Below, in pieces: positions 11,947 to 35,404 of a stretch of DNA of 40,203 nucleotides. The position numbers and the translations under genes were made by a program. Positions within the stretch are counted from its first letter, which is position 1, and every line of letters begins with the position of its first letter. The DNA is taken from the NCBI GenBank assembly GCA_014238525.1, contig JABAAY010000004.1, forward strand, positions 1-40,203. Direction: 5' to 3'. The DNA is from Mycoplasmatales bacterium (lineage in GTDB: Bacteria > Bacillota_I > Bacilli_A > Mycoplasmatales > JABAAY01). The notes under the pieces are model-generated. The model did no database searches and was not told the origin of the DNA. It was given only the letters and a program-made list of their open reading frames with translations.

Positions 11947-13176
11947 ATGAACAAAAAAAATAAAATCATAACGACGGCGCTGGGAGCAGGTGTGTTGGGA
12001 AGTGGAATTGCATTAACCGCAATTGCACAGGCATGTACTGATGATTCCCCAGCGATTGATCCACAACAAGAAGAAGCAATAAACACAATAACCACTGAAT
12101 TGAATGCGGTAACTTCCTACAGAGAAGGGGATATTCCTGATGGTATTTTGTGAGAACTACTTAGACTAGCTATAAACGATAGTGATTCTGCAGCAGTGAA
12201 TGTACTAGAGTGAAATTTTAGTACGATTTCTGCTGAAGATATTTCTGTTTCCGGATATGACTATACAGTTCAATTAAATAATTTCCAGGGACTTTTTAAT
12301 GATGGACAAGTTGTCATGCAGGCGACGCCTTCGACTTCTGTCTCGTGAGTGTTGAGAAACAGAAATGTAAATGATAGCATTGGACAATTAGCTTTGAGAA
12401 CGGTTTCTCTAGATGATATTTCTGCCTCAAGACAGAATGATCAAACAATTATTGCGGAAGTTAACACTTTATCTAATTATAATGTCAGTACTTCTCAACC
12501 TTCAGGCCTTGCCTTAGAGTTGTTAACAGCCATTGAATCAAATATCACAGGTAGTTATCCGTTTGGTGCCCTTACTTTGTCAACACTAACTTTTAGTGAA
12601 TTAAATTCCTCAAGAGTTTTTCCGTTTAATACTAGCGGAGAAAACAATATTTATTCGATAAATATCGACATTGCTTCAGGAGTTGCTGCTTCTGGAACTG
12701 AAACAATATCCGTTGCAGGCAGTATGATTATTGCTGTTGAGGTAAGTAACATCAATAATTTTGCAATTAGTGCAACAACAGGCGTTACAGGCGTAACGCT
12801 TGGTGACGAGGCTTTGCGTGATACTATTCGTACAGCGGTAAATCAATTTTCCAATTACGATTCAATGGTTGGTGTAACCGATGCTTTAGCCTTGGCAATT
12901 CTTCCTGTCCTTAATTCCACAATACAAACTGTGTATGGAGAGCCTTCTGCAACTTTACTTACTTTAAATTTCAATATGGTCACATCCACCGACACATTAA
13001 TATCCCCTAGCAGCACTAACTATAATATTGGGTTTATTTCCATTACAAGTGCGACGATTAGCACTGATTCGGGTCCCTTTACTATTAATGATATTAATTT
13101 CAGAATCACAATCGGCGCTAATAGTGATTTTACACTTGATGATCAGAATATCGCAGTTATAATACCTACCGTTTAG
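11947..13176 (+). CDS. Lipoprotein of the AQxC family, 409 aa, three ~120-aa repeats
   Basis: Basic N-region, Gly/Ala-rich H-region, AIAQA-C30; joins two track ORFs via three TGA codons; S/T/N/I-rich. Confidence 0.85.
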
Positions 13177-14081
13177 TCAATTAAAAAACCCAAAAGTTCA
13201 AGAATTCTATTTAAGTCGTTGTTACTTTTGTATTTAATTTGAATTTTATTATTTCCAATATCTATTTTGGTTTGTAATTTTGCTCTGATGAAATTTTCTA
13301 TTTCTAGAATTTCTATGGATTTATTGGATTTTAGCTTCTTATGTCGGTATTTTTGTAAACCGTGTCCTCTAACAATATCTTCTACCTGTCTTACGGACAA
13401 TTTTTCACGCATGATTCTTTCAGCAATACCTAAGATTATTTTTTCATCGTCTATTGTAATAAGGGGTTTAACATGACCCATGCTTACCTGGTTGTGCAAA
13501 ACCATTTGCTGAATAGAATAAGGAAGTTTTAACATTCTTATTGTATTAGCAATGTAACTTCGTGATTTTCCTAAATGTTGTGACAGCTGCTCTTGTGTGA
13601 AACTACGATCATTCAATATTTTTTCGTATGCTCTACCTTCTTCAAGTGGATTTAAATTTTCACGATGAATATTTTCGATTAATGCAATATCTTGCATTTG
13701 AATGTCGGTGGCGTTAATAACAATTCCCTTTATAAAGGGCTTGTTGAGGATATCCTTAACTGCTTTTAAGCGTCGTTCACCGGCAATAACATAATACTGA
13801 TCCTCAGATGCTTGTTTTAAAATAATTGGACTTAATAACCCTTGCTTTTCAATTGAATGTGCCAACTCTCTTAAACCATCTTGATTAAAAACTAATCTAG
13901 GTTGAAAAGGATTGGATAATATAGAATTGGTTGGAAACTCGTCTGCTTGTCTTATTATTTCTTCATCTTGCTCAATACTATCTATTTGTTTAAGAATGTC
14001 ATCGTCTCCTTCCATTTGTTCAGAGGCACGAAATAAATCTTTTAATCCCCTACTTAATCCTGATTTTTTTGAGTATTTCAA
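13173..14081 (-). CDS. parB: ParB/Spo0J chromosome partitioning protein
   Basis: GLSRGL, NPFQPR, IAGERR, ALIENIHRENLNPLEE, HTH TQEQLSQHLGKSRSYIANTIR. Confidence 0.96.
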   Translation of the reverse strand: MKYSKKSGLSRGLKDLFRASEQMEGDDDILKQIDSIEQDEEIIRQADEFPTNSILSNPFQPRLVFNQDGLRELAHSIEKQGLLSPIILKQASEDQYYVIAGERRLKAVKDILNKPFIKGIVINATDIQMQDIALIENIHRENLNPLEEGRAYEKILNDRSFTQEQLSQHLGKSRSYIANTIRMLKLPYSIQQMVLHNQVSMGHVKPLITIDDEKIILGIAERIMREKLSVRQVEDIVRGHGLQKYRHKKLKSNKSIEILEIENFIRAKLQTKIDIGNNKIQIKYKSNNDLNRILELLGFLID

Positions 14082-14082
14082 T

Positions 14083-14847
14083 TTATTTACCTATTACCTC
14101 TCCAACAAAGGCAGAGTATGCCTTTGCTCCTGCAGATTTTTGATTGTAATCATAAATTGATAATCCAGCAGATTGTGATTCACTAATTTTTACGTTTCGT
14201 GGAATGTAAGTTTTATAGACCTTTTCTCCAAAATATTTTCTTACTTCGTATGCTATTTCTGTTGATAAATTTGTTCGCATATCAAACATGGTTAATAAAA
14301 TCCCTTCGATTTTAATTTTTGGATTATAAAGTTTTTTGATAAATTTTATTGTTGACAATAACTGTGTTAGCCCCTCAAGTGCATAGTACTCTGTTTGAAT
14401 AGGTATGATGACTCCATTTGTAGCAGCAATACCATTCCGATTTAGTAAACCTAAACTTGGGGGACAATCAATAATTATGTAGTCGTAAAGATGTTCAATT
14501 GTTTTAAATTTAGGTTCTAAAATATTTTCACGAAGCCTATTGTGTTCAACTATATAAACATCTGCTGCCGCTAAGTCAATGGTTGCCGGAGCAAGATCAA
14601 CATTAGGAACAATATTTTTGATTAAGATGTCCTCTATTGTGGTTGCTTTTTCCACAACCAAGTGAAATACACTCTTCTCTACAGAATGTTTTGATATACC
14701 AAATCCTGTTGTAAGGTTACCTTGTGGATCTAAGTCAATGACAAGGCATTTAAAACCTCTTTTACCTAATCCGGCGCTTAGATTAATTGCGGTTGTAGTT
14801 TTTCCGACTCCGCCTTTTTGATTAGTTATTGATATTTTTTTAGCCAC
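14083..14847 (-). CDS. parA: ParA/Soj ATPase
   Basis: NQKGGVGKTTT, DLDPQGN, IDCPPSLG, EYYALEG, IPRNV; GTG start. Confidence 0.97.
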   Translation of the reverse strand: MAKKISITNQKGGVGKTTTAINLSAGLGKRGFKCLVIDLDPQGNLTTGFGISKHSVEKSVFHLVVEKATTIEDILIKNIVPNVDLAPATIDLAAADVYIVEHNRLRENILEPKFKTIEHLYDYIIIDCPPSLGLLNRNGIAATNGVIIPIQTEYYALEGLTQLLSTIKFIKKLYNPKIKIEGILLTMFDMRTNLSTEIAYEVRKYFGEKVYKTYIPRNVKISESQSAGLSIYDYNQKSAGAKAYSAFVGEVIGK

Positions 14848-14853
14848 GGTTAA

Positions 14854-14859
14854 ATTATA
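14854..14859 (-). promoter_or_regulatory. -10 box of a probable leaderless parA transcript
   Basis: TATAAT 6 nt before GTG 14847. Confidence 0.6.
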
Positions 14860-14901
14860 TCTTTGTTTTATTGATAATATTGAAGACTTTTATCTTTTTG
14901 T

Positions 14902-16371
14902 TTATATTGAACTTTGAAAAATTCCTTGGCCTGCACTAAAAACTCCAAACGCAATTAAAAAGTATACTGAATTACTAAGTGCATCAGTAATTGTTGTTAA
15001 TAAAGGAACACCCATAATTGCGGGATCAAGTTTTAATTTTTGAGCAATAACCGGGACACTACCCCCCACTATATTTGCTAATAAAACAGCAGGAATGATT
15101 GCTACTGTGGCAGAAATTGCAGCACCGTATTGTTCTGGTCCTATAATAGAACCATTAGGCCGTTCACCAACAATTAAATTTGTTATTGTATAAACGAAAA
15201 GTGATCTTGGTATTTCAATTACGGCTAAAACAGTTCCCACAATTAAAGAAATTCTAGACTCCAACCAAACAACCTTGAGGAGGTCGGTTTTTTTTATTTC
15301 TCCTATAGCAAGCCCTCTCACCACAATCGTTACTGCTTGACTACCTGTGTTGCCTGCAGTATCAGAAATAATGCCTGTTAAAACAGCAACAAAAGCAAAA
15401 ACAGTTGCCCCTTGGACAAAATTACCGCTATCTCGAAACAAAAGCAAAAATGCACTATTCACAAATTGATACAAAGAGGTGGAAATTATTAAAAAAACTA
15501 GTCACGGTATTCTTTTTCCGCTATTTCTTAGATATCCCGATCTAAAATAATTGTGTCTATCTGGTGTAATATTTGCTAATCGTTGTATGTCTTCTGTTGC
15601 TTCTTCTTCTATAACGTCGATAACATCATCCACACTGATAACGCCAGCCAATTCAAATAAACTATTAACAACAGGAATTTCCAGTAAATCATAATTTTTA
15701 ATAAACTCAACAACTTTTTCTTGATCATCTGCCGTCTTGACAAAAATTATTTCTTTTTTCATTATTTCTTCTATTTTTTTAGAATTATCAGTAATCAATA
15801 AATCTTGTGCAGTGACATACCCCTTTAAGTGGTTGCCTTCATCAACAATATAATATAAAGGTAATTTTTCATATTTTCCTATATTTTTTTTAATGAAATC
15901 TATACAACTAGCAACTGTCTTTTCAAGCCTAAAATAGATATAATCGATATTCATTAAACTTCCCGCGGTGTCTTCTCCGTACTTTAAAAGTTGGTTAATT
16001 TCTTTCCTTGTTTCTTTGTTAGAAGCTGCAATAATTCTTTTGGAAATATCGTTAGGCATTTCCTCTAGTAGTTCAACAAGATCATCACTATATAGTGAAT
16101 TTAAAATATTAGAAATTTCTTTACTATTCAAATTGTCAATGATTTGTTCTTGAAATTCCGGATCTAAATAACTGAATAGTGTTGCGCTGTCACCTGTTTT
16201 CAAGCAACGAAGAACAAATAGTTGTTCTTTTTCATCTAATTGTTGAAATAATTGTACAAAATCATAAATATTCGTCTCTTTAGCTCAATATCTAATTTTT
16301 TCTAAACTTTTTTTCTCAATTAATTCTTTTAGAGATGCAAGGTCAATGGATGATGCTGGTTTTTTTAGCAT
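14902..16371 (-). CDS. mgtE: Magnesium transporter MgtE
   Basis: ATG 16371 with an AGAGGT SD; N-domain, YGEDTAGSLM and a CBS pair, EEEATEDI, AGNTGSQ, DPAIMGVPLLTTITD; 489 aa across TGAs. Confidence 0.96.
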
Positions 16372-16373
16372 TA

Positions 16374-16980
16374 TTATTTACCTCTTTTTTCTGTGATAAT
16401 TGAAAATATAACTTTAGAAATATCTGCCGATAGAACTCTATGAAGTTTGCCGTTAAGTGCGTACGAAATCTTGCCATTAGTTTCAGAAACAACAATTGCA
16501 AAAACATCTGATTGTTCACTCGCTCCAACTGCGGCTCTGTGTCTACTCCCATAATTAGATGACATCTTTTTTTTTCATGGGAAGGTACGAGGCAACAGAA
16601 ATGACTCGATCTCCTCTAATTATTAATGCTCCATCGTGTAAAGGAGAGGTTTTTTGAAACAAAGCAACTATGATTTGTGGTTGAATAATGGAATCCATTG
16701 GTACTCCTAAATCTATGTAACTTTTGACCTGTACTTTTCTTTCGATTAATATTAATCCACCTATTTTGTTTTGTGATAATTCAGAAATGGCTGTTGCCAA
16801 TTTATTAGCAATTTGTTTTTTTAATTCAATTCCTGATAGTTTTTTTCGTCCACCAAAAAATGTTTTAGATTTAGCAATTAAAGGTTGTAGAAAAGCAAAG
16901 TATCCAAAAAGAATAAACAAAAATATCACCATACTAAATGTGACAGCGGTAAGTATTAAAACAGTTTGTAGCGGATCCAT
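16374..16980 (-). pseudogene. cdaA: Diadenylate cyclase (CdaA/DacA-type) interrupted by a frameshift at an A9 run (real or artefact)
   Basis: Frame 1 has an N-terminal TM, GGLILIER and SPLHDGA, then ends at TAA 16555. Frame 2 carries YGSRHRAAVGASEQSD...VVSETNGKIS. Total span is 607 nt (3n+1). Confidence 0.9.
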
Positions 16981-16986
16981 AACTGT

Positions 16987-16992
16987 ATTATA
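16987..16992 (-). promoter_or_regulatory. -10 box of a probable leaderless cdaA-mgtE transcript
   Basis: TATAAT 6 nt before ATG 16980. Confidence 0.6.
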
Positions 16993-17069
16993 GTGAACAA
17001 AAGAAACAATTTTCTATTATTTAAATTTTTTATTATCTCAATTAGATTTATTTATAAATAGATTTAATA

Positions 17070-19631
17070 CTATGAAGTAGCGCCAATATTCATTCAAGTA
17101 CCGGTGATAATTACATTGCTTGCAAAGGTGACCCCAGTGATTGTTACATTTTCACCATTAATTGCTCCAAAACTTGTTTGTACAGTATTTAGATCGTAAG
17201 TTCCCGTGACTTCGGTAAGTGTTATTGTGTATGTAGGAGTATCCCCCGCACCACCAGCGTCTGTTCTTTGAACAGAAGTTCCTAGAAGACCTCCTGCTGC
17301 TAGTGAATTAACATCTTCAACTGGAACACTTAATGCTGTGGCAAGTTGATTTATTAAAAACACTGCACTTGGAGAGGTTGGAAGAATAGTTGAAAAACTC
17401 ATTCTTTGCACGATCGCATGTATTTCAATTTCTCTGCTGTCTACTGGCACAATACCGCTAACGCCTGTTTCAGGGTTAATTGACAAAGAAGCACCGTCAA
17501 ATCCTATTGAAACTCTCATTTCTCCAGAAAACGAATCTTGATTGGAAAGAGTGTTAACAACAGGCGCAAGTGCAATTCTGACTTCGTATCCTGAGCTGGT
17601 TGCTGTAATATTTGATGCACTAATGGATGCAAAAAATATGCTTGTAATTGTAGCGTTTGGTTCGCTAATATTAATGTGTGCAGTCATTGCACTTAACATT
17701 TCTTCAGCCAAAAGACCAAGATTGTTTATATCTGAACTGTTGTAATTCCTCAATTCATTAACATCACTTATTATTTGAGCAACAAATGTGCTTCCACTTA
17801 AACTTAAACCCGTGGTACCATCTGTAGCAATTGTAAACGAACCGCTTGTATAATCAATTGTTGTCACCGCAGTGCCACCAATGATTTCTCCTGTACTCGC
17901 AGTTCCCGTCATTGCCACACTAGCAGTAAAAATATCCCCTGATTCTGAAATGTCTTGAGTAGTAATTTCGGTAAAATTCAACTCCCTTACAGTGTTGCCT
18001 GTGGATACATCGGATAAATTATTATTTATAGAAACTAAGTAATTTTGCGCCAATCTTCCTATTTGTTGTCCTACAATGTATGAACTAATCTCATTAATAG
18101 CATTAACGATTACACTTTCATTAGGTAAATCGGACAAAGTAAGTCCCGTTACGCCGCCTGATGCAACAGATAATGTGGAGGTTACGGGATCATATGAAAT
18201 CGTTGCCACGGCATTTCCACTAATTGCCTGGCCGTCATCTGCTGTTCCTGTCATTGCTATAGTGACTGTATATACATTACTGTTCTCGCTTAAGTCTTCA
18301 GTAGTTATAGGTGAAAAGGTAAGACTCGTTACAAAAAGAGAATTATCCGCGCTTTCAGTTCGTATGTTATTATTAATTGCTGTTAAAAATTCTGCTGTTA
18401 CTCCCGATACCTGTGAGTTCGCTCTGTAGTCTTGCAAACCATTAATGCTTGTAACTATTCTATCTTCAACATTTCCTTCATTAACACCTAATCCAGTGAC
18501 AGTGCCTGCAACTAGAGTTTCACCAGAAATTGTAAATGAAGTGTTTATTTGCCCGGAAATAACATCATCCGTTGTAGTTAAACCTGTAACAGCGCCTGTT
18601 GAAACCGTATACTCGTTATTTGCGAATCTAATGGCTGCATTGTTTATTTGAGCAAACTGCATACTTTGAATGCTCGAGGAAGGGTCTGTTGCAAGATTAT
18701 TATTTATTTCTTGTAAAATGCTTCCAGCCAACCCTGTTGGTAAATTACTAGGGTTTATTGTGTAGTTGGAAAAAACATTTATAGCATCTCTTATGAATGC
18801 TGAGTTTTGGGGATTTATAATTTCAAGTTGTGAAACGCCTGTAACGCTTAAAACATCGTTTTGATTTGCTATAGCAACTCTGATTGTACCAAAGACGTCT
18901 CTAGAGATTTCAGAACTGCCGGAAGGTATATTTACTGTTGTTCCGCTCACAGAAAAATCAGCTTGAAAATTAGTGAATCCTTCTCCTGTAGTTGAAACAT
19001 TAGTGTTTTGTATTGGAGTAAATTGTAATGAGTCTAAAACATCTCCCTCTAGGTTGTTTCCAATTACAACATTTGTTTGAGCAATAAATTCTTCAGACAA
19101 ACCTGAATATATATTAGTTCTTGAATAATTATTTGTTGCATTTAAAGCAGAAACAATCTGACTAATAACTGCGGTGTTTGACACTTGTAAATTACTAACG
19201 TCAGAGGTTGCGGTGTCAATACTAAAATTTTCATTAACAAATCTAGCAGCAATAGTTATTGTGCCGGTTACAAGCAAGCTTGAGTTAGTTTCTCCACTTA
19301 TGTCGATATTAATCGACAATTCATTTGTAGTGCTATCGACAATAACGTTTTGGCTTTGCAATGCGGCAAAAGTTAGAGAATTAAGCTCTGAATTGGGCAC
19401 GCTGCTGGAAATTCCGTTATTGATTAAACTTATCACCTCTGTTTGGAAACCATCCGGACTAAAAGTCATTCTGTTGTATTGGTCAAGTCCGTTTAACTCA
19501 TTTGTGAAGGCAACGCTTCTATCTGTTGTAGGTTCAGAAGCACATGCTTGTGCAACGGCTGCTACCGCTACGCCGGTTCCTAATGCTGTTACACCCATTA
19601 AAGTTGCTAGTTTATTTTTGTTTTTTTTCAT
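17070..19631 (-). CDS. Large AQxC-family lipoprotein, 853 aa, six tandem ~115-aa repeats plus a C-terminal domain
   Basis: AVAQA-C30 lipobox; extends past TGA 17094 to TAG 17070; repeats visible by eye. Confidence 0.88.
17440..19508 (-). repeat. Six degenerate protein-level tandem repeats (112-121 aa)
   Basis: Anchor motif (I/F)xxx(I/L/V)NxxxxY starts at about 19508, 19157, 18794, 18458, 18110 and 17774, followed by 'INNN(L/I)', 'SLxF', 'ISG' and 'GVTGL'-like motifs. Confidence 0.85.
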
Positions 19632-19688
19632 GAAATTTCTCTTTTCTTTTATTTATATAGTACATTCTTATTTTTTGTTATTTTAATT

Positions 19689-20339
19689 TTATTTGATTTT
19701 TTTCAATCTATGTTTGTTTACTGTGACTGTAAAATCATTTATTAATACGAGAGTATACAAAGCCAAACCCAATACGAAATATAAGTCGCCAATGTTCGTA
19801 ATAAAGGAAACTTGACCGCGCGCGCCTGTAAAATACTGCCCTCAGTTTATATAAATGTAGTCTATAACAACCGGAAGTCCGTCTCGATTAGTAAAAATAA
19901 ATCTATCAACAAAATGACTAAATAAGCCTGTGAACATCAATCCCACAAATAAAGTGTGTGAAGATTTTTTAGTAAACAACAGCAGCAGCAATAATGGCGC
20001 TAATATGACAACGGAAACAATTCATATTCCCACCTGGTCTCGTCCTCCAGGAAAGGTGCCAAAGAATAAACCCTCGTTGCCAATTAAGTAAATTCCGAAA
20101 GCAGAAGTTGGTTCAGCTCTTCCTGTGGGAAAGTTATTCGTTGGTATTGTGTTAAATCCATAAATACTTGGATTGATAACAGCATAGACCGCAATAAGCC
20201 GTATGGATATGAAAATCAGAATCAAAAATAGAAAAATAAAAATTTTGCTAAAAATTATTTTTTTTAACCTTTGTTTGTTTGTTTGTTCTTTTAATTTTTT
20301 AAAATTCACTGATTTCTGCCTGTACAGTTTCTGAAACAT
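19689..20339 (-). CDS. lspA: Lipoprotein signal peptidase II, divergent
   Basis: Code 4: four hydrophobic segments, GNEGLFFG, GLFSHFVDRF, VVIDYI, ITNIGDLY (both catalytic Asp positions present). Start could be 20339 or 20390. Confidence 0.82.
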
Positions 20340-22266
20340 CTTGGGCAAAAATGTTTTTGCCGATGTACTCTCCACACAATAAAGAAACATCTAATTTCAT
20401 TGCAGTAATTAACAAAGTATGTGTGTCAATATTTATTAGAGCGGTTTCTATTTTGTTCTTTTTTATGTTATCTAATGATATCTTAAAGCCTTGTAATAAG
20501 GACCTATCCTTATGAACAGCATTAATGGTATACGGCTTAAAAAGTACAAAAGCTGGTTGGATTTTAGGAAGAAGTTCATGGTGTTTTTTGCTTTTGTAAT
20601 CAAAATTACTCAAAATTATTCTAATTTTATTTTCGTTTAATGTTTTTATTTTTTCAAGGAGCGTGTTTGTGATGGATGATAAATGTTCACAATTAAAGTC
20701 AATCATAATCTTGCTTGGGTTTATCCCAAAATTACGAATGCGTTCGACAAAAGAATGTGGATTAAATCATTCGTTATTTATAGAGCCTGCGTCATAAGTT
20801 ATGGCAAGGGGTTGTTTGGTGTTGCCCTGCAAAACGTATTGATTAATACTTAGTCCGGCGAAATACCTAAGCATTGTATCGTACAAAAATTTATCATATA
20901 CATAATCAAATAATTCTTTAACGTTGGAAAATCGATTCATCTTCGAAATATAGTAACGCGAGTTATAAAAAATGATTTTTGAATTAACTGAGGAAACGAC
21001 TGGCATGTATTCAACTTGTAAATCCCTTATGGGGAATAAATTAGATAAAGCACTAAATTTTTTGCTTTCTGTAATTCCTTCGTTTCATATCTTAGGGTTA
21101 AATATGGACACATGCTTACATTTGGTTGAATCAGGTTTTTGTAAAAAGTTCTTTTGATTGTAAGTCTCTAATTCTTCTAAAGAGTTAGAATGAACACCAT
21201 AATAACTCACTACACACCGCGGATTTATGCTTTTGTATTTGTTTTCGTTTTTTTGAATTTTTTTCTTAATGTTTAAAGCAGATTGTTCCAACAACAATAA
21301 GAAGTTGTCGTTTTTTAAGTGGTAATCTGGAGAGTCCATTTGCTCGCTAGAAACAACATTAGAGAGATTTTCAATTGGTTTAAATAATCCATATTGATCT
21401 TTTGTAATTTCAAAAAGCAAAATATCATCATTAGAATATGTGTGACCCAACTCATGCCGCAATTCATTAAGGAAAGACTGTTTTGCTCTTGTGCCGTGTT
21501 TAATTTCAAGAGTTTTTAATGCTTCGAAACCAAACGTTACAAAAAAACCAGCAGTTACATTTTTGATATTTATAAATTTTTCTATCTCAGTAAAAGCCAA
21601 GGAAGATCTGATAAATTTTTCATAAACGTATATGTTTACAATATTTAATTGAAATGCACTATTTACAACGGAAGTTATATAGGCAAAAGCAATAGAAAGA
21701 AGAGATAGAGAAAGAAAACTTCATAAAACACCATATAAGTTTGTGGTTTGATCAAGAGATGGGAAAGCCCTTGTTGGTGTAATAAAATAATAAATCAATA
21801 TTAGGCCCACAGTTTGAAAAATAATTGAAAGAACAATAGCTATGCTTTTATATTTTTTTAAAATAAGAGAAACAATTCAATAAAAAATAATTGCTACGAA
21901 GACAACAAGAAAAATTACATTGGTTTGTGTGCTTGATGAGTAATTAGCTAAATCAATTACCCAACTACTTGCAATAGTAAGAACGCCAACAATCGGATTT
22001 ATAAATATTCCTATCACCAAAGGGATTATTACGGCATAACTTATAGAAAAAAAGCTTTCCGTTGTTCTTTGAAATAACAAACTTTGGAATAAGTTTAGGA
22101 GAATAATGATCGCAGCTCATTCAAGAAAAATAACAGCACTATACACCTTTCTAAAATTGGAATTAATAAATGGCTGAAGAACAGCTCATGTCGTGGAAAA
22201 AATAATAATTATTAATAAAAGGAGTGCAAGATTAAGGAGAATTTCAAATACTATGGAATCTAACAT
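20299..22266 (-). CDS. Multi-pass membrane protein with degenerate GGDEF-like and EAL-like domains (655 aa)
   Basis: Four track ORFs share one frame from ATG 22266. About 200 aa of TM helices, then LEIKHG...LFEITKDQYGLF...VVSYYG (GGDEF-like layout), then VEYMPVV...GFKISLDNI...LLCGEYIGK (EAL-like layout). Confidence 0.7.
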
Positions 22267-22272
22267 TTTTTT

Positions 22273-22652
22273 TGGTGGAGATGGTGGGAATCGAACCCAC
22301 GTCCAGACTAAACAATCCTAAAACGTCTACAGTTTAGGGTGCCTTGTTTTTAACTATGAAAATATAAGACAACCAAAACTTCTCATAGCGAGTTCTCTAA
22401 AATTTCAACTGATTAGCGAGAAAATAATCAATCTATTCGGTTTATTTGGCGTTTGCCTGTAGACTACCGACTCATCTACAAGAAACGGGTTTCTGCTTTA
22501 TTAAGCAGTAGCAAAAGTGCTTGAAGCACCTCTACTTTGTAAGAAACCAAGGTCGACTTTTTTTTCGTCTGCGGTTATAAAACCTAGTGTCTATTAGGTA
22601 GACAACCACTGCAATTTTAGGTTGATAAAATCTGTCGAAGCCCTACATCCCC
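22273..22652 (-). ncRNA. ssrA: tmRNA
   Basis: 5' GGGGATGTAGGGCTTCGAC and 3' GTGGGTTCGATTCCCACCATCTCCACCA; 7-bp acceptor stem with the G3-U Ala identity pair; 380 nt; internal tag frame; smpB is nearby. Confidence 0.97.
22501..22572 (-). other. tmRNA tag reading frame (A)ADEKKVDLGFLQSRGASSTFATA**
   Basis: ATAACC followed by the GCA resume codon, open to tandem TAA TAA. Confidence 0.85.
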
Positions 22653-22658
22653 AATAAA

Positions 22659-22664
22659 ATTATA
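22659..22664 (-). promoter_or_regulatory. -10 box of ssrA
   Basis: TATAAT 6 nt before the mature 5' G at 22652. Confidence 0.65.
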
Positions 22665-22724
22665 GTTCTTTTTTGTTAATTTTTAAAAATTAATTTTACG
22701 AAATAAATATAAAATAAGTAAATC

Positions 22725-23681
22725 ATGAATAATAGAAAAAGTAAATTTAAAAAAGTGTTTTTGGGTGGCATTGGCGGTGCTGCAGTTATTACAAGTGTTG
22801 TAGCACAGGCATGTGGCGATGATAGTTCTCAATTCATAAATCAAAATTTTATACTGAAAGAAATAAACTCTTTTTCAGAAAATTTTAGAATAAATGAACT
22901 TACCCAAAATCAAGAAAACATGCGAGACGGAATTTTAAATACTGTAAACAATTTAAACGCTGGAATATATAATCAAAATCCCGCACGCACAACATATGAT
23001 CTTCTAGCAAATATAAATTTTCCCGAGCTTTCAATTTCAAATATTCGTGTGGTTCCTGGTTCGTTCAATCAGGATTTTATAATAAACTATGATTCGCCAA
23101 TAACTTTTATTGGTCAGAGCACACAATTCGAAGGAATTAACAAAAACTTTTCAAACGTACAAAATAATAGCGGCACGACTATTTTGATTACATTAAGCGA
23201 TAAAATTATACAAAATTTTGGGATTTTAAATATTGCTGCCGTTAATTCTTCAGAAAAAATTACTTTGCCAACCTTCCTGAGTCGTTTAGATATTGAAATT
23301 CTTTTGAATAAATTATCCAATGCTCAACAAAACGAAATATTTGACTATCAAGAATCACCTTCTTTTTATTCCTTAATTTCGTTTATTAATGCATTAGGTA
23401 TTCAACAAGGTGTAGATTTTTTTGGTGGTCAAGGATTTTTATTTTTAGAAAATTTTACTTTCGAAAATATTATTGAATACAATGAACAAACACTAAAAGG
23501 AAGAATTTTTATAAAAAGGACTGATTTTGGTATTCGAATCGGTAGTGGGGTGTTCAACAGTCAGTGGCAATTGCCTGGTGGGCAATCCGCTCATTTATTT
23601 GAAGAAAGTGTTGTTTTATCTTTTGAAGTTTTCCTGGGCTCTGGTGTGGACGGCAACGACTTGATAAGTTTTTATGTATAA
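22725..23681 (+). CDS. AQxC-family lipoprotein, 318 aa
   Basis: MNNRKSKFKK...VVAQA-C30; N/I/F-rich mature region. Confidence 0.85.
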   Translation: MNNRKSKFKKVFLGGIGGAAVITSVVAQACGDDSSQFINQNFILKEINSFSENFRINELTQNQENMRDGILNTVNNLNAGIYNQNPARTTYDLLANINFPELSISNIRVVPGSFNQDFIINYDSPITFIGQSTQFEGINKNFSNVQNNSGTTILITLSDKIIQNFGILNIAAVNSSEKITLPTFLSRLDIEILLNKLSNAQQNEIFDYQESPSFYSLISFINALGIQQGVDFFGGQGFLFLENFTFENIIEYNEQTLKGRIFIKRTDFGIRIGSGVFNSQWQLPGGQSAHLFEESVVLSFEVFLGSGVDGNDLISFYV

Positions 23682-24378
23682 AAAACAAATTTATACCGTG
23701 AAAAGCTTTGAGTGCCTTGAAAGCACTCAAAGCGAAATAATGTTGAAAAAATGGGATAAATACGAAGACTTTCTTTTTTTAGAAACCGAAAGCCAAACTA
23801 AGGGACTAACCCGAAAAAAAAACACTCTTTGACATTCAAAAAAAGGAGATATTCTTTTCTCTTTGCGTTTTAAATCAAAATTACTGAGTTCTCAAATAAT
23901 GTTTTTAAATTTTATAATCGCACAACAAATTATTAAGGTAATTGTTTCCTCCCCTGGAGCAATCCTGAAAATAAAATGGCCCAATGATGTTTATTTAGGG
24001 AAAGAAAAAGTTGCTGGTATTTTAACGAACGTTTCTTCCTTATTAAACACTGATGAAAAAATAGTCTACATTGGTGTCGGAATAAATACTTCTCAAGACA
24101 GAAGTAAATCTTCAAGAGTTAAAATTAACTCAAAGTGATTGTTGTTTGAAAAAATTGTTGAAAAAATTAAACGGTTTGAAGATAATCCTTCCTTGTATAC
24201 AAAAAAAATTCAAAAATCATTTACGAAGTATGATTATTTCAAAGACATGCATTTAATACATAAAAATAAAAAACATAAATCAATCGGCATAGATCGTTCT
24301 GGATTTCTTTTGATTGGTACTAGAGGGGAAATAATTACTATTTACGATACAAAAGAAATTCAATATATTAAAAAATAA
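23674..24378 (+). CDS. birA: Biotin--protein ligase (class I, no HTH), 234 aa
   Basis: Code 4 from ATG 23674: LESTQ, ETESQTKG...W(TGA)HSKKGDILFS, KIKWPNDVY, KVAGIL, IGVGIN, GIDRSGFLLI. Confidence 0.9.
23705..23733. repeat. Perfect 11-bp inverted repeat with a 7-nt spacer
   Basis: GCTTTGAGTGC-cttgaaa-GCACTCAAAGC. Confidence 0.9.
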
Positions 24379-29264: not shown

Positions 29265-30362
29265 TTATTTTTTTTTCTTGTTATGATCATCTTTAATAAA
29301 ATAATCAATCTCGCCTAATATTTCGTTGGCTAATTTTTTATTTTCTTTTTTTGAGTCGTAATGTTCGTCAACAACATTTTCAGGATTATTAAAGGACTCG
29401 GTATTTAAGAGTCTTTCTTCAGGAATGGGTTCATTCTTATCTACAGGCATTTTCTCAGGTTCAATGCCAATAATTTTAGCATTAACATCTGAATCAATTA
29501 GCCCTGTAGCCTTTGATGCGAAATGGCCTACGTGTGCTACTTGAGGTTTGTCCCTCTTTGGAAGAATTGCATAGTGTCAAACAATAATTCAAATAAGAGC
29601 TGCCAAAGAGAATATGACGATTATTATTGCCGATACAAAAGAGAAACTACCCCCTAAAATATCTGAAGAGTTCCGAAAGTTCTCAGTAATGGCTCGGAAC
29701 GCACCTCATCAAATCCCTGTTATTGCTGCCCCCATTCCAATTCTGTATCCCTTTATTTTTGGAAATACAAAAACAACAAGGAAGAACAAGGTTAAATTAG
29801 ATAATGCCTCGTATAGAAATAACGGTTGCAGAAAGCCGGTGTTGCTGGTACCGGGCAAATGGAAAAATTCCGCAATTACTCTGAAAAAATTGGAAATACT
29901 TGCAATATCGAACGGCACATTCAGAAATATTTCCTGATTAAAATAATTCCCAAGCCTTCCTACTGCCTGTCCAACGACTAATGCAGGAACAATAGCTTCA
30001 AAATAAGTGAATACTGATACTCCTGTTTTTCAAGATGATCATCATATCCCGCCAATAATAATTGGAACGCCAACGATAAGAGCTCCCAATATGGAAAATC
30101 CTCGAATTCCGCCTGCATCAATCCCGAAAAAGAGTCGTCAAAAGGCTATAAAACCTCCAATATTGTCTAATTCTCCACTAAATATTAGGGAGGCAAGTCT
30201 CGCTCCAAACAAAGCAAAAATAGCAAAAACAAAAAATCCTATTTCAACATGAAGTAAGTCTATTCCTCTTCGTTTTGACCTAACTAAACTTATAGCAAGA
30301 GCAATAAGTATTCCAGATGCAAAGAAAACACCATATCAATTAAACCCTGAAAAATCTACCAT
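29265..30362 (-). CDS. lgt: Prolipoprotein diacylglyceryl transferase with a charged C-terminal extension, 365 aa
   Basis: FNW(TGA)YG, FGARL, GQAVGRLGNYFNQE, QPLFLYE, FRAITENFR. Confidence 0.94.
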
Positions 30363-30881: not shown

Positions 30882-31478
30882 CTACGAAGTGGGAGGGTTT
30901 GGAAATATTTCGACAAAATTAGTTGCATTAGCTTGCACACCGAATGAATTAGCATTTATTTGAGGTCTTTGATTCGAATCAAGTGATGCAGTTATAACTA
31001 TCATAAAACCAGGAGTATTGTTTGCAGCGCCTCCTCATATTCCTCTATTAGAAACTCCTCCAGAAGAAAGTGATGCTGTAACAAGTAACTCGGTAATTGT
31101 AATAGTAAACATGTTACTATCTTCGTCAAAGGCTACGTTAGAATTCTCCAAAGTGCCGATATAAACGTTATTTAATGTGATTGGTTCAAGATCTGTGTCG
31201 GTTGGACTGGCTGTGGGCGTTCCGCCCATCATATTGTTATAAATTAATACTCTTGCTCCTCGTACAAAGTCTCTTTGAATTTGAGTTTGGGGATTCTCGA
31301 GATTAAATATTCCAGAATCAAAATTATTAAGATCGTTCACTATTTCTTCAATATTGTCGGTTGTTGTTGTTCCAGTGGCACACATTTGAGCAACCGCTCC
31401 AATTGTTGTTGCGCCTGCAAGAGTTGTAATTCCTAATGCCGCGGAAATGATTTTTGTATTTTTGCTTTTTTTATTCAT
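30882..31478 (-). CDS. AQxC-family lipoprotein, 198 aa
   Basis: AVAQM-C33; AGAAGG SD upstream; extends past TGA 31035 to TAG 30882. Confidence 0.85.
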
Positions 31479-34414: not shown

Positions 34415-35404
34415 ATGAAGAAAAAATACAAAAAAATATTCAAAATATTTTCGTTATCCTCAATAGGTGCGTCTTCAACTGTTCTGGTTGCTCAATCGTG
34501 TTCCAATATTCCTTCTGCTCCTCCGGAAATTCTCAATGATTTAAGTATTATCTTTGCCAACTTAAATCATAATAATTTGAATGTGAACACGTCTCCTGAA
34601 ACGGAAGTGATACTGGATAGTTTTTTAGATGTGATTAATGCTTCTACTTCCCTCCAAAGCATTGATGAAAATTTTGATGAAATTTTAGCAATGAATAATC
34701 TTTCTGTACAAAGTATAACGGACGAGGGTGGTGGTGCTTTTCGTATATCCTTGCCTACAACAGTCACAATAGAGGTCAGAAATTCCAAAATTTCTGCCTC
34801 ACAAACAACAATAAAATTGCAAAATACCACAATTAATTTTTTTCTTGTTGTTAGAACATCTAATGATTCAGAAATAAATTTTTCAACCGTTTCACTTCCT
34901 AATAATGATTTTGAATATGTCTTTGATAGGGATTATTCAAACTCTCAAATAAACAGTTTATTTACTAGCACTATTTTAGAAACAATTAACGCTACTTCTC
35001 CTACGAAGGGATCTTTATTAAGAAGTTCTGCGAATGATAATGCAAATTTTAATTTACTGGAAACAGAAATCAATGGCAATTATAATTTTTTAAGTGTTCG
35101 TGGTTTTGTTCACAAACTAAATTCTTTATTGCTTTCGCCTAACTCAACATTTACAAATGGAATTTTTGCTCCACTTGAAGGCGGAGAATACGGAATTTCC
35201 TTAACTTGAGACAACATGAGTCGAACTGGGATTTTAACTTTTAGTGATTCCTCGGTTTTTTCTAGAGTGGAAATGGATGGAACTGTTGTTAACGATTCTT
35301 GATTAGAAAATAATACAGAAGTGTTTACAAACTTTCGTTCTCCCTTAAATTTGTCTTTTACAATTGTGCAAACAAGTTCTGAATTGGCAACCTTTCTATT
35401 TTAA
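34415..35404 (+). CDS. AQxC-family lipoprotein, 329 aa
   Basis: MKKKYKKIFK...VLVAQS-C29; open to TAA 35404. Confidence 0.83.

Follow-up and report, generated by a model that had tools for sequence, protein, structure and literature searches.

The window and its genome

The window analysed here, the whole 40,203-nucleotide stretch of contig JABAAY010000004.1 (C72 of the source assembly, GCA_014238525.1), carries on its minus strand, at positions 17070-19631, an open reading frame (ORF) under translation table 4 for an 853-residue protein, P0001, predicted to be a surface lipoprotein. Its mature part holds no lysine. A sequence-only reading of this DNA had taken that absence for the mark of selection, and the source genome reveals a wider pattern: almost every segment on the outer face of the membrane, in lipoproteins, in anchored exoproteins and in outward loops of transporters, is nearly free of lysine and strongly depleted in histidine.

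The assembly (665,840 bases in 127 contigs, 31.9% GC, 77% estimated completeness) is designated G000 below. G001 is a congener and, of the relatives compared, the one genome besides G000 that belongs to this genus and family; G002 and G013 are control genomes. The source lineage is a family with two known species. Coding is dense across the window under table 4, and UvrA, transketolase, CTP synthase and several tRNA synthetases reach their full Pfam length when read through TGA. AAA and AAG stand for lysine in this organism, the P-loops GSGKT and GSGKS of UvrA being translated correctly. Over 649 non-overlapping ORFs of G000 the background is 9.2% lysine and 3.4% arginine, lysine reaching 10.5% in the 336 soluble ORFs.

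Positions 14000-23900 of the window are present in runs labelled as marine metagenomes in one study and, in another, in four runs of one sample whose label names a single organism. Contigs from both run types cover the P0001 gene nearly identically. Run X4 gives no matching contig and X1 a single poor one, so that gaps in coverage carry no weight. These labels fit a marine, host-associated Mollicute, and the organism is probably an uncultured, animal-associated member of that group. One run of the single-organism sample (X3) holds a further contig, over 17070-17779, which is about 87% identical at the 3' end of the gene, with 61 differences in 479 bases and 164 bases swapped for 167 others. 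That sample therefore contained another strain or species of the lineage as well.

A lysine-free lipoprotein of tandem repeats

The mature part of P0001 (17070-19541, 823 residues) has 0 lysines, 19 arginines, 2 histidines, 0 cysteines, 38 aspartates and 40 glutamates. The probability of meeting no lysine in 823 residues is log10 P = -39.6 at the cytosolic lysine frequency and log10 P = -19.5 at the frequency expected from the base composition of the genes themselves. The signal peptide with its lipobox (19542-19631, minus strand; MKKNKNK...AAVAQAC) has 4 lysines in the n-region and reads MKKNKNK-LATLMGVTALGTGVAVAAVAQA-C30, so that a basic n-region, a hydrophobic h-region and the lipobox cysteine (Cys30, 19542-19544) are all present. 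By sequence P0001 has the features of a bacterial lipoprotein of the Lgt/Lsp pathway, with lipidation and surface exposure predicted.

AlphaFold2 models P0001 from 14 sequences with a predicted local distance difference test score (pLDDT) of 74, with good confidence for residues 40-730 and low confidence for 732-853. The model consists of six repeats of 110-120 residues, each built of two helices plus four to five strands. Repeat 1, a putative NTF2-like domain (residues 33-150, 19182-19535), repeat 2 (151-271, 18819-19181), repeat 3 (272-385, 18477-18818), repeat 5 (503-612, 17796-18125) and repeat 6 (613-730, 17442-17795) are delimited by the model, by alignment A2 and by profile matches. Repeat 4 (386-502, 18126-18476), folded alone, reaches a pLDDT of 94 and a predicted template modelling score of 0.87. 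The C-terminal region (731-853, 17070-17441), like the repeats on the minus strand, is modelled with low confidence, contains the sole TGA codon (W846) and has no lysine.

Compared by VIA-align with 48,161 chains, repeat 4 reaches a Z of at most 7.2 (3rob, 8uqf and 3a76; root mean square deviation of 3.1-3.4 across 92-96 residues), and NTF2-like, SnoaL-like or VirB8-like proteins fill nearly all of the first 50 places. With the whole model Foldseek reaches a probability of 0.97 to 7c5x, a tandem NTF2-like iota-carbonic anhydrase, and to 3ub1 (TcpC), at low template modelling scores; with a single repeat it gives no match at E <= 0.001. A Pfam scan of P0001 returns no match. Together these structural comparisons lend moderate support to the P0001 repeat being an NTF2-like domain, a likeness that implies no function.

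A scan of 1.84 billion representative proteins with P0001 yields 12 matches including P0001 itself. The 11 distant homologs share 21-28% amino acid sequence identity with it (alignment A1; 25-33% over the matched stretches) and have 4 lysines in about 5,600 residues. Ten of them carry a signal of the A-Q-x-C type, the remaining one being N-terminally incomplete. The ortholog in G001 is 83% identical and has 0 lysines in 824 mature residues. Of the 398 genomes (61 genera) of the order that were scored with a profile built from 15 repeats, only G000 and G001 contain matches; the predicted chain of six NTF2-like domains is restricted to this lineage.

The window encodes four other lipoproteins. 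A paralog of 409 residues (11947-13176, plus strand) has three repeats of the P0001 domain, recognised by alignment A2 and profile match, and its 379 mature residues include 0 lysines and 10 arginines. A 198-residue lipoprotein (30882-31478, minus strand) has 0 lysines and 5 arginines in 165 mature residues. Two more, of 318 residues (22725-23681, plus strand; no Pfam family) and 329 residues (34415-35404, plus strand), have 7 lysines in 288 and 4 in 300 mature residues, respectively. The sequence-only reading had counted no lysine in the mature 853-, 409- and 198-residue proteins, 19 arginines in the first, about 7 and 4 lysines in the other two, and lysine-rich signal regions throughout; translation under table 4 returns the same figures, with 3-6 lysines in each of the five signal peptides. 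Its span of 17070-19541 for the element describes only the mature part of P0001, ending at the first base after the cysteine codon, while the gene runs to 19631.

Both enzymes of lipoprotein maturation have genes in the window. An ORF at 29265-30362 (minus strand) matches Lgt, the prolipoprotein diacylglyceryl transferase, over 29592-30341 (89.3 bits; cut-off 24.9), and one at 19689-20390 (minus strand) matches signal peptidase II (Lsp, Peptidase_A8) over 19743-20105 (38.6 bits against 25). The Lsp ORF and P0001 share a strand, the former being directly upstream, an arrangement that suggests co-transcription. A second Peptidase_A8 gene is found at C39:46794-47138 in this genome of about 0.7 Mb. 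The start of the window Lsp ORF is overlapped by about 90 bases by the ORF of a 655-residue multi-pass membrane protein (20299-22266, minus strand) whose C-terminus carries an EAL domain (38.1 bits; cut-off 31.3). To our knowledge a protein resembling cyclic di-GMP phosphodiesterases is unexpected in a Mollicute.

Lysine, arginine and histidine across the lipoproteins

A lipobox filter on G000 returns 38 candidates, 30 of which carry the conserved A-Q-x-C signal (A-V-S-C in one case); the other 8 look like false positives. The mature parts of the 30 contain 56 lysines in 12,233 residues (0.46%), against the 10.5% of soluble ORFs, and their signal peptides contain 12.7%. Lysine is absent from 13 of the 30 and reaches at most 3.2% in any of them, so that the normal content in other lipoproteins for which the sequence-only reading had left room is not what the genome holds. 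A lipoprotein missed by the filter (C31:4501-5436) also has 0 lysines in 283 residues. The comparison of extracellular with cytoplasmic lysine and arginine that the same reading had called for comes out as it foresaw, arginine standing at 0.78 times its soluble frequency beside the collapse of lysine (0.044). Cysteine (0.05), histidine (0.14), methionine (0.49), tyrosine (0.62), tryptophan (0.63) and glutamate (0.65) are depleted as well. Aspartate (0.97), isoleucine (1.01), leucine (0.96), phenylalanine (1.05) and glutamine (1.04) are about unchanged. Asparagine (1.5), serine (1.8) and threonine (1.9) are enriched, and glycine, alanine and valine are also higher.

The signal end of these proteins is conserved and atypical. 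Instead of L-(A/S)-(G/A)-C, as in the usual lipobox, it reads (A/V)-(A/V)-A-Q-x-C; position -2 is glutamine, and position -1 varies among A, G, Q, S, M, E, T and F. The metagenomic homologs of P0001 have the same atypical end. It could be a lineage marker or reflect an altered specificity of Lsp.

The lysine to arginine ratio falls from about 3:1 inside the cell to 1:6 outside (339 arginines and 56 lysines in the mature lipoproteins), and the two together make up 14% of residues inside and 3.2% outside. The latter difference could be read as a constraint of export, positive charges hindering translocation by the Sec machinery. Arginine carries the same charge and is nevertheless kept, and other Mollicutes export lipoproteins with 14% lysine, so we give this idea next to no credence.

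Another account is a physicochemical adaptation of the exposed proteome to salt, pH or solubility, or the making of a low-charge, acidic, hydroxyl-rich and possibly glycosylated coat. The marine origin speaks for it, as do the computed isoelectric points, uniform near 4 (4.05-4.35, where 4.05 is the floor of the program), the lack of replacement of lysine by arginine, the lower glutamate and the rise of serine, threonine, glycine, alanine and valine. N-x-S/T sequons number 2.09 per 100 mature residues against 1.06 in the lipoproteins of control G002, and serine plus threonine amount to 22%, a density that could allow dense glycosylation. Halophilic proteins combine an excess of aspartate and glutamate and fewer large hydrophobic residues with low lysine; here aspartate and glutamate stand at 0.97 and 0.65 and isoleucine, leucine and phenylalanine near 1.0, and seawater is not hypersaline. 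Extreme halophiles retain about 2% lysine, and the depletion seen here (0.46%, with zero in 13 proteins of an AT-rich genome) is stronger. In secreted proteins adapted to alkaline conditions lysine is replaced by arginine, histidine and glutamine are raised and acidic residues are fewer, a signature at odds with arginine at 0.78, histidine at 0.14 and a strongly acidic net charge; asparagine makes up 10.4%, a residue for which the alkaline trend is given inconsistently, as disfavoured and as raised. Adaptation to acid would remove arginine too. Short outward loops of transporters are purged as well, which a bulk coat property explains poorly. Halophiles are nonetheless known to reduce surface lysine, which is unfavourable at high salt (Tadeo 2009, quoted in the accessible text of PMC13696103), and glycosylation of mycoplasma lipoproteins has been reported (PMC4657876, in the part available). 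We regard this account as a live rival, though quite unlikely.

Controls: the fold and other Mollicutes

The sequence-only reading had allowed that lysine depletion could be a property of the fold, and a widespread family answers this. An OppA-like lipoprotein of 935 residues (C50:27888-30695, with permease-like genes adjacent) matches SBP_bac_5 (PF00496, 43.9 bits against a cut-off of 32.4) and has 9 lysines, 5 of them in the mature part; the total in its G001 ortholog is again 9. Elsewhere in the order, in five other families, 7 genomes supply eight SBP_bac_5 ORFs with 62-101 lysines (6.0-9.4%), one of the eight scoring below the family cut-off. This Pfam family search was used since a direct search of the relatives with the OppA-like protein gave no match outside the genus. 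The same family being lysine-poor here and lysine-rich in five other families, the fold explanation fails.

In 400 kb of control G002, a genome of another family, there are 36 lipoproteins with 14.15% lysine (7.8-19.1%), 1.13% histidine, 0.05% cysteine, 0.63% methionine and isoelectric points of 5.0-9.6; control G013 yields a single lipoprotein by the filter and carries little weight. Relative to G002, the lipoproteins of G000 have 0.03 times the lysine, 0.23 times the histidine (binomial p = 1.5e-27), 1.76 times the arginine and 1.61 times the methionine. Low cysteine and methionine are thus generic to Mollicute lipoproteins, and the loss of lysine and histidine is special to this lineage. 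The earlier argument that retained arginine speaks against simple avoidance of charge or trypsin stands, arginine being at 0.78 times its level in the organism's own cytosol and at 1.76 times that in the control lipoproteins.

The pattern follows the side of the membrane

Topology of membrane proteins was assigned with a hydropathy rule. Segments of at least 60 residues outside the transmembrane (TM) helices have a bimodal lysine content, 18 of 186 falling under 1% and the bulk lying at 6-20%. The contrast appears within single proteins. The successive segments of a phosphotransferase system (PTS) EIIABC protein, identified with Pfam, contain 38, 0, 5, 0, 9, 0, 0, 5, 0, 1, 4 and 11 lysines. 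A double FtsX-type permease of 1,395 residues has two large domains before its FtsX modules, which we take to be extracytoplasmic by the known topology of the family; they hold 4 lysines and 20 arginines in 433 residues and 7 lysines and 21 arginines in 596, whereas the short loops of the other side hold 3-5 lysines in 18-57 residues. Outward segments of polytopic membrane proteins in general keep arginine. Lysine-free runs of at least 150 residues occur in 21 of the 29 lipoproteins of that length, in 13 of 129 TM proteins and in 1 of 336 ORFs without a TM segment; this last one, on a 3-kb contig, looks like a fragment of a surface protein.

Orienting polytopic proteins by arginine alone (G000, G001, G002 and G013) was too noisy, giving 6% lysine outside in G000, and was dropped in favour of segment tables of single proteins. 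A 726-residue protein with 11 TM segments (C53:3208-5388) has no Pfam family, and its matches in relatives are too weak for an alignment of the loops. FtsH offers no comparison of outer loops, the G000 copy being truncated at a contig end and the control sequence covered having no usable copy. An N-terminally anchored, lysine-poor protein of 676 residues (C94:23222-25252) has 11 lysines in 644 outer residues and a run of about 14 acidic repeats of the GNGEEPGD type.

Sidedness bears on the possibility that abundant surface proteins economise a growth-limiting amino acid. Cheap residues (serine, threonine, glycine, alanine and asparagine) are enriched and costly histidine, tryptophan and tyrosine are lower, as sparing would have it. 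The pattern is nevertheless governed by the side of the membrane and not by the protein, one and the same transporter having lysine-rich inward and lysine-free outward loops; signal peptides, which are discarded, are full of lysine, and phenylalanine, isoleucine and leucine are not reduced. We find this scarcely credible.

A Pfam scan of 39 membrane and surface proteins of G000 finds six families above cut-off: PTS, FtsX, TrkH, FtsK, SBP_bac_5 and EAL. The scan bears on escape from a lysine-specific endoprotease, an enzyme cutting exposed Lys-X bonds that could belong to the host, to co-resident microbes or, as a nutritional surface protease, to the bacterium itself. Lysine-specific proteases exist in bacteria, and both the discrimination between lysine and arginine and a pattern in which a single residue would be one too many fit such an enzyme. 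No protease family is found among the 39 proteins, however, beyond a sub-threshold match to Peptidase_S15. Digestive trypsins also cut after arginine, which is kept, and the loss of histidine is left unexplained. This origin of the pattern appears very unlikely to us.

Evidence for continuing selection

In the mature lipoprotein genes 3,698 of 12,233 codons (30%) are one base away from a lysine codon. AAA and AAG make up 0.46% of triplets in frame against 5.2% and 6.6% in the other two frames. Among 13 reciprocal-best pairs of lipoproteins of G000 and G001, there are 1,585 differences in 6,264 mature sites (25%), and lysine takes part in just 21 of them (1.3%); in 103 soluble pairs there are 3,425 differences in 31,836 sites (10.8%), and it takes part in 715 of them (20.9%). 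The lipoproteins therefore evolve fast but almost never through lysine. In 290 kb of G001 there are 19 lipoproteins with 47 lysines in 8,856 residues. Composition, off-frame triplets and ortholog differences all bear out the earlier proposal that strong selection acts against lysine in an AT-rich genome. That proposal did not take in the outward loops of transporters, the accompanying loss of histidine, the same trait in the congener or the low isoelectric point that follows from lysine not being replaced by arginine.

Effects at the level of codons or mRNA are excluded because the same mRNAs encode lysine-rich signal peptides and inward loops. The contrast holds within one genome and within single membrane proteins, which excludes composition, codon usage, fold and expression level as causes. 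What the data show is a continuing, side-specific purifying selection against exposed lysine and histidine that tolerates arginine.

What exposed lysine may cost

In line with the general idea of the sequence-only reading, we favour the hypothesis that the purge denies an agent outside the cell a covalent handle in lysine and histidine, and put its probability at roughly 0.55. The epsilon-amino group (and the imidazole) would have been removed as a point of attachment for an agent unable to reach the cytoplasm, and a cell without a wall would have no other shield. Since lysine is at exactly zero over hundreds of residues in many proteins, a single exposed lysine seems costly, and a process in which one hit suffices (tagging, cross-linking or cleavage) fits this cost better than a bulk property does.

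Host or environmental electrophiles or cross-linking enzymes could be the agents, such as phenoloxidase-type quinones, reactive aldehydes or oxidants that form haloamines. These reagents attack lysine, histidine and cysteine and not arginine. This version of the mechanism best matches the composition because lysine and histidine are both lost and arginine is spared; it is speculative all the same, and we hold it to be possible but doubtful.

Ubiquitin-like tagging is a different candidate for the agent. If the cell lived free in the host cytosol, a lysine-free surface would deny E3 ligases of ubiquitin or ISG15 an acceptor and the bacterium would escape xenophagy. The preference for lysine over arginine and the near-zero, one-hit pattern fit this idea, a wall-less cell exposes only lipoproteins and loops, and the presence of the stretch in runs labelled with a single organism implies a physical association with a host. 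There is a precedent in Rickettsia parkeri, where methylation of lysines in outer membrane proteins blocks ubiquitylation (PMC8232902, in the text available), and lysine deserts protect toxins and proteins of the ubiquitin system (PMC13696103, likewise). The depletion of histidine finds no explanation in it, however, and serine and threonine, which are non-canonical acceptors of ubiquitin, are enriched 1.8-1.9 times. It also requires a cytosolic life, whereas G000 resembles extracellular Mollicutes in having PTS sugar uptake, OppA, MgtE and TrkH. A search for an ATP/ADP translocase (PF03219) gives no match in G000 but none in the control genomes either and is uninformative. We judge ubiquitin-like tagging unlikely.

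Several points weigh against the denial of a covalent handle as the reason for the purge. The genome is only 77% complete. The hydropathy rule behind the topology is a crude one of our own and not a trained predictor. Undepleted glutamine weakens a version based on transglutaminase, methionine that is not below the control lipoproteins weakens one based purely on hypohalous oxidants, and the depletion of cysteine, generic as it is, adds nothing. The unreplaced lysine, the uniform isoelectric point and the lower glutamate (0.49 times the control) can be used by the physicochemical account. Three signal-anchored proteins (C41:6743-8086, C39:10109-11428 and C39:20662-22017) keep 3.4-5.3% lysine in their presumed outer parts, which means that the rule has exceptions or that these proteins have another topology or fate than assumed. 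A search for phosphatidylserine decarboxylase finds no match in the incomplete G000 and allows no conclusion on amine lipids.

The three lysine-containing proteins match no Pfam family and have several histidines in the parts presumed to lie outside. A second hydrophobic stretch, rich in glycine and alanine, is present in two of them, which are paralogs. All three may be released or membrane-inserting factors.

Taken to its full extent, the denial of a covalent handle would make the exposed proteome a compartment-wide lysine desert serving passive immune or chemical evasion, with the primary amine and most of the imidazole genetically deleted from it; we give this broader statement even odds. 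Lysine-directed defences would then not see the surface, be it through ubiquitin-like tagging and xenophagy within the cytosol of a host or through cross-linking of the quinone, aldehyde or transglutaminase type outside cells. Per-site selection would be able to hold 800-residue proteins at zero lysine in an AT-rich genome.

Comparison with known systems

The contrast between 10-13% lysine inside and about 0% outside, with arginine kept, is an internal control that makes this organism a clean natural experiment on the cost of exposed lysine, and it points to a strong lysine-directed pressure in a marine host niche. The prediction is that lysine gives no access for labelling, cross-linking or ubiquitylation of the cell's surface proteins. 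The ratio of lysine to arginine inside and outside is a simple genomic signature with which wall-less and intracellular bacteria can be scanned. P0001 and its relatives add a lineage-restricted family of surface proteins built of putative NTF2-like modules. The predicted helices of the P0001 repeat, followed by a curved sheet, resemble the cone domains of NTF2-like, VirB8-like and SnoaL-like proteins (3rob, 3a76, TraM 3wz3, TcpC 3ub1 and 7c5x); unlike those domains the repeat belongs to no Pfam family, aligns with middling Z and comes in six tandem copies on a lipoprotein.

The lipoproteins share with those of ordinary Mollicutes the lysine-rich n-region, the hydrophobic core, the lipobox cysteine, Lgt and Lsp, cysteine-poor mature parts and membership in lineage-specific, fast-evolving paralog families (here 25% divergence against 10.8% in soluble proteins). 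They differ from ordinary Mollicute lipoproteins, here those of G002, by a lysine content of 0-3.2%, an isoelectric point near 4 and the A-Q-x-C lipobox. With halophilic and alkaliphilic proteins they have in common low lysine, retained arginine and an acidic net charge; they lack the excess of aspartate and glutamate, keep large hydrophobic residues and have less histidine, and the change is far more complete and confined to the outer face.

A lysine desert is defined as an unbroken stretch without lysine of at least 150 residues or at least 50% of a protein (PMC13696103, in its accessible text), and P0001 falls well within this definition with a lysine-free run of 823 of its 853 residues. 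The deserts treated in the 2026 review, as far as its text is accessible, are those of the A chains of AB toxins, of ubiquitin-system proteins and of pupylating Actinobacteria and their phages (PMC13696103); the same accessible text has no mention of lipoprotein, Mycoplasma, Mollicutes or extracellular. The paper on a salmon Mycoplasma metagenome-assembled genome (PMC8192413) concerns a different organism (25% GC) and, in the part available, has no mention of lysine. The literature searched, which covered few subscription journals so that a prior mention is possible, contains no description of a lysine-free Mollicute surface or of a lysine-free bacterial surface proteome.

Both here and in the known deserts, long lysine-free regions are read as protection from lysine-directed tagging (PMC13696103 and PMC10665810, in the text available). 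In Rickettsia parkeri (PKMT1/2) the surface likewise hides lysine amines from host attack (PMC8232902, in the text available), but that bacterium keeps its surface lysines and masks them by methylation, whereas here they are gone from the genes. Lysine avoidance has so far been seen in single toxins, in ubiquitin-system proteins or in GC-rich proteomes, where composition itself favours lysine loss and selection is hard to separate from it. Here the purge takes in the whole outer face of a cell whose genome has 32% GC and whose cytosol is lysine-rich, and histidine is depleted along with lysine. What sets the organism apart from these systems is that lysine avoidance extends, in an AT-rich genome, over an entire face of the cell.

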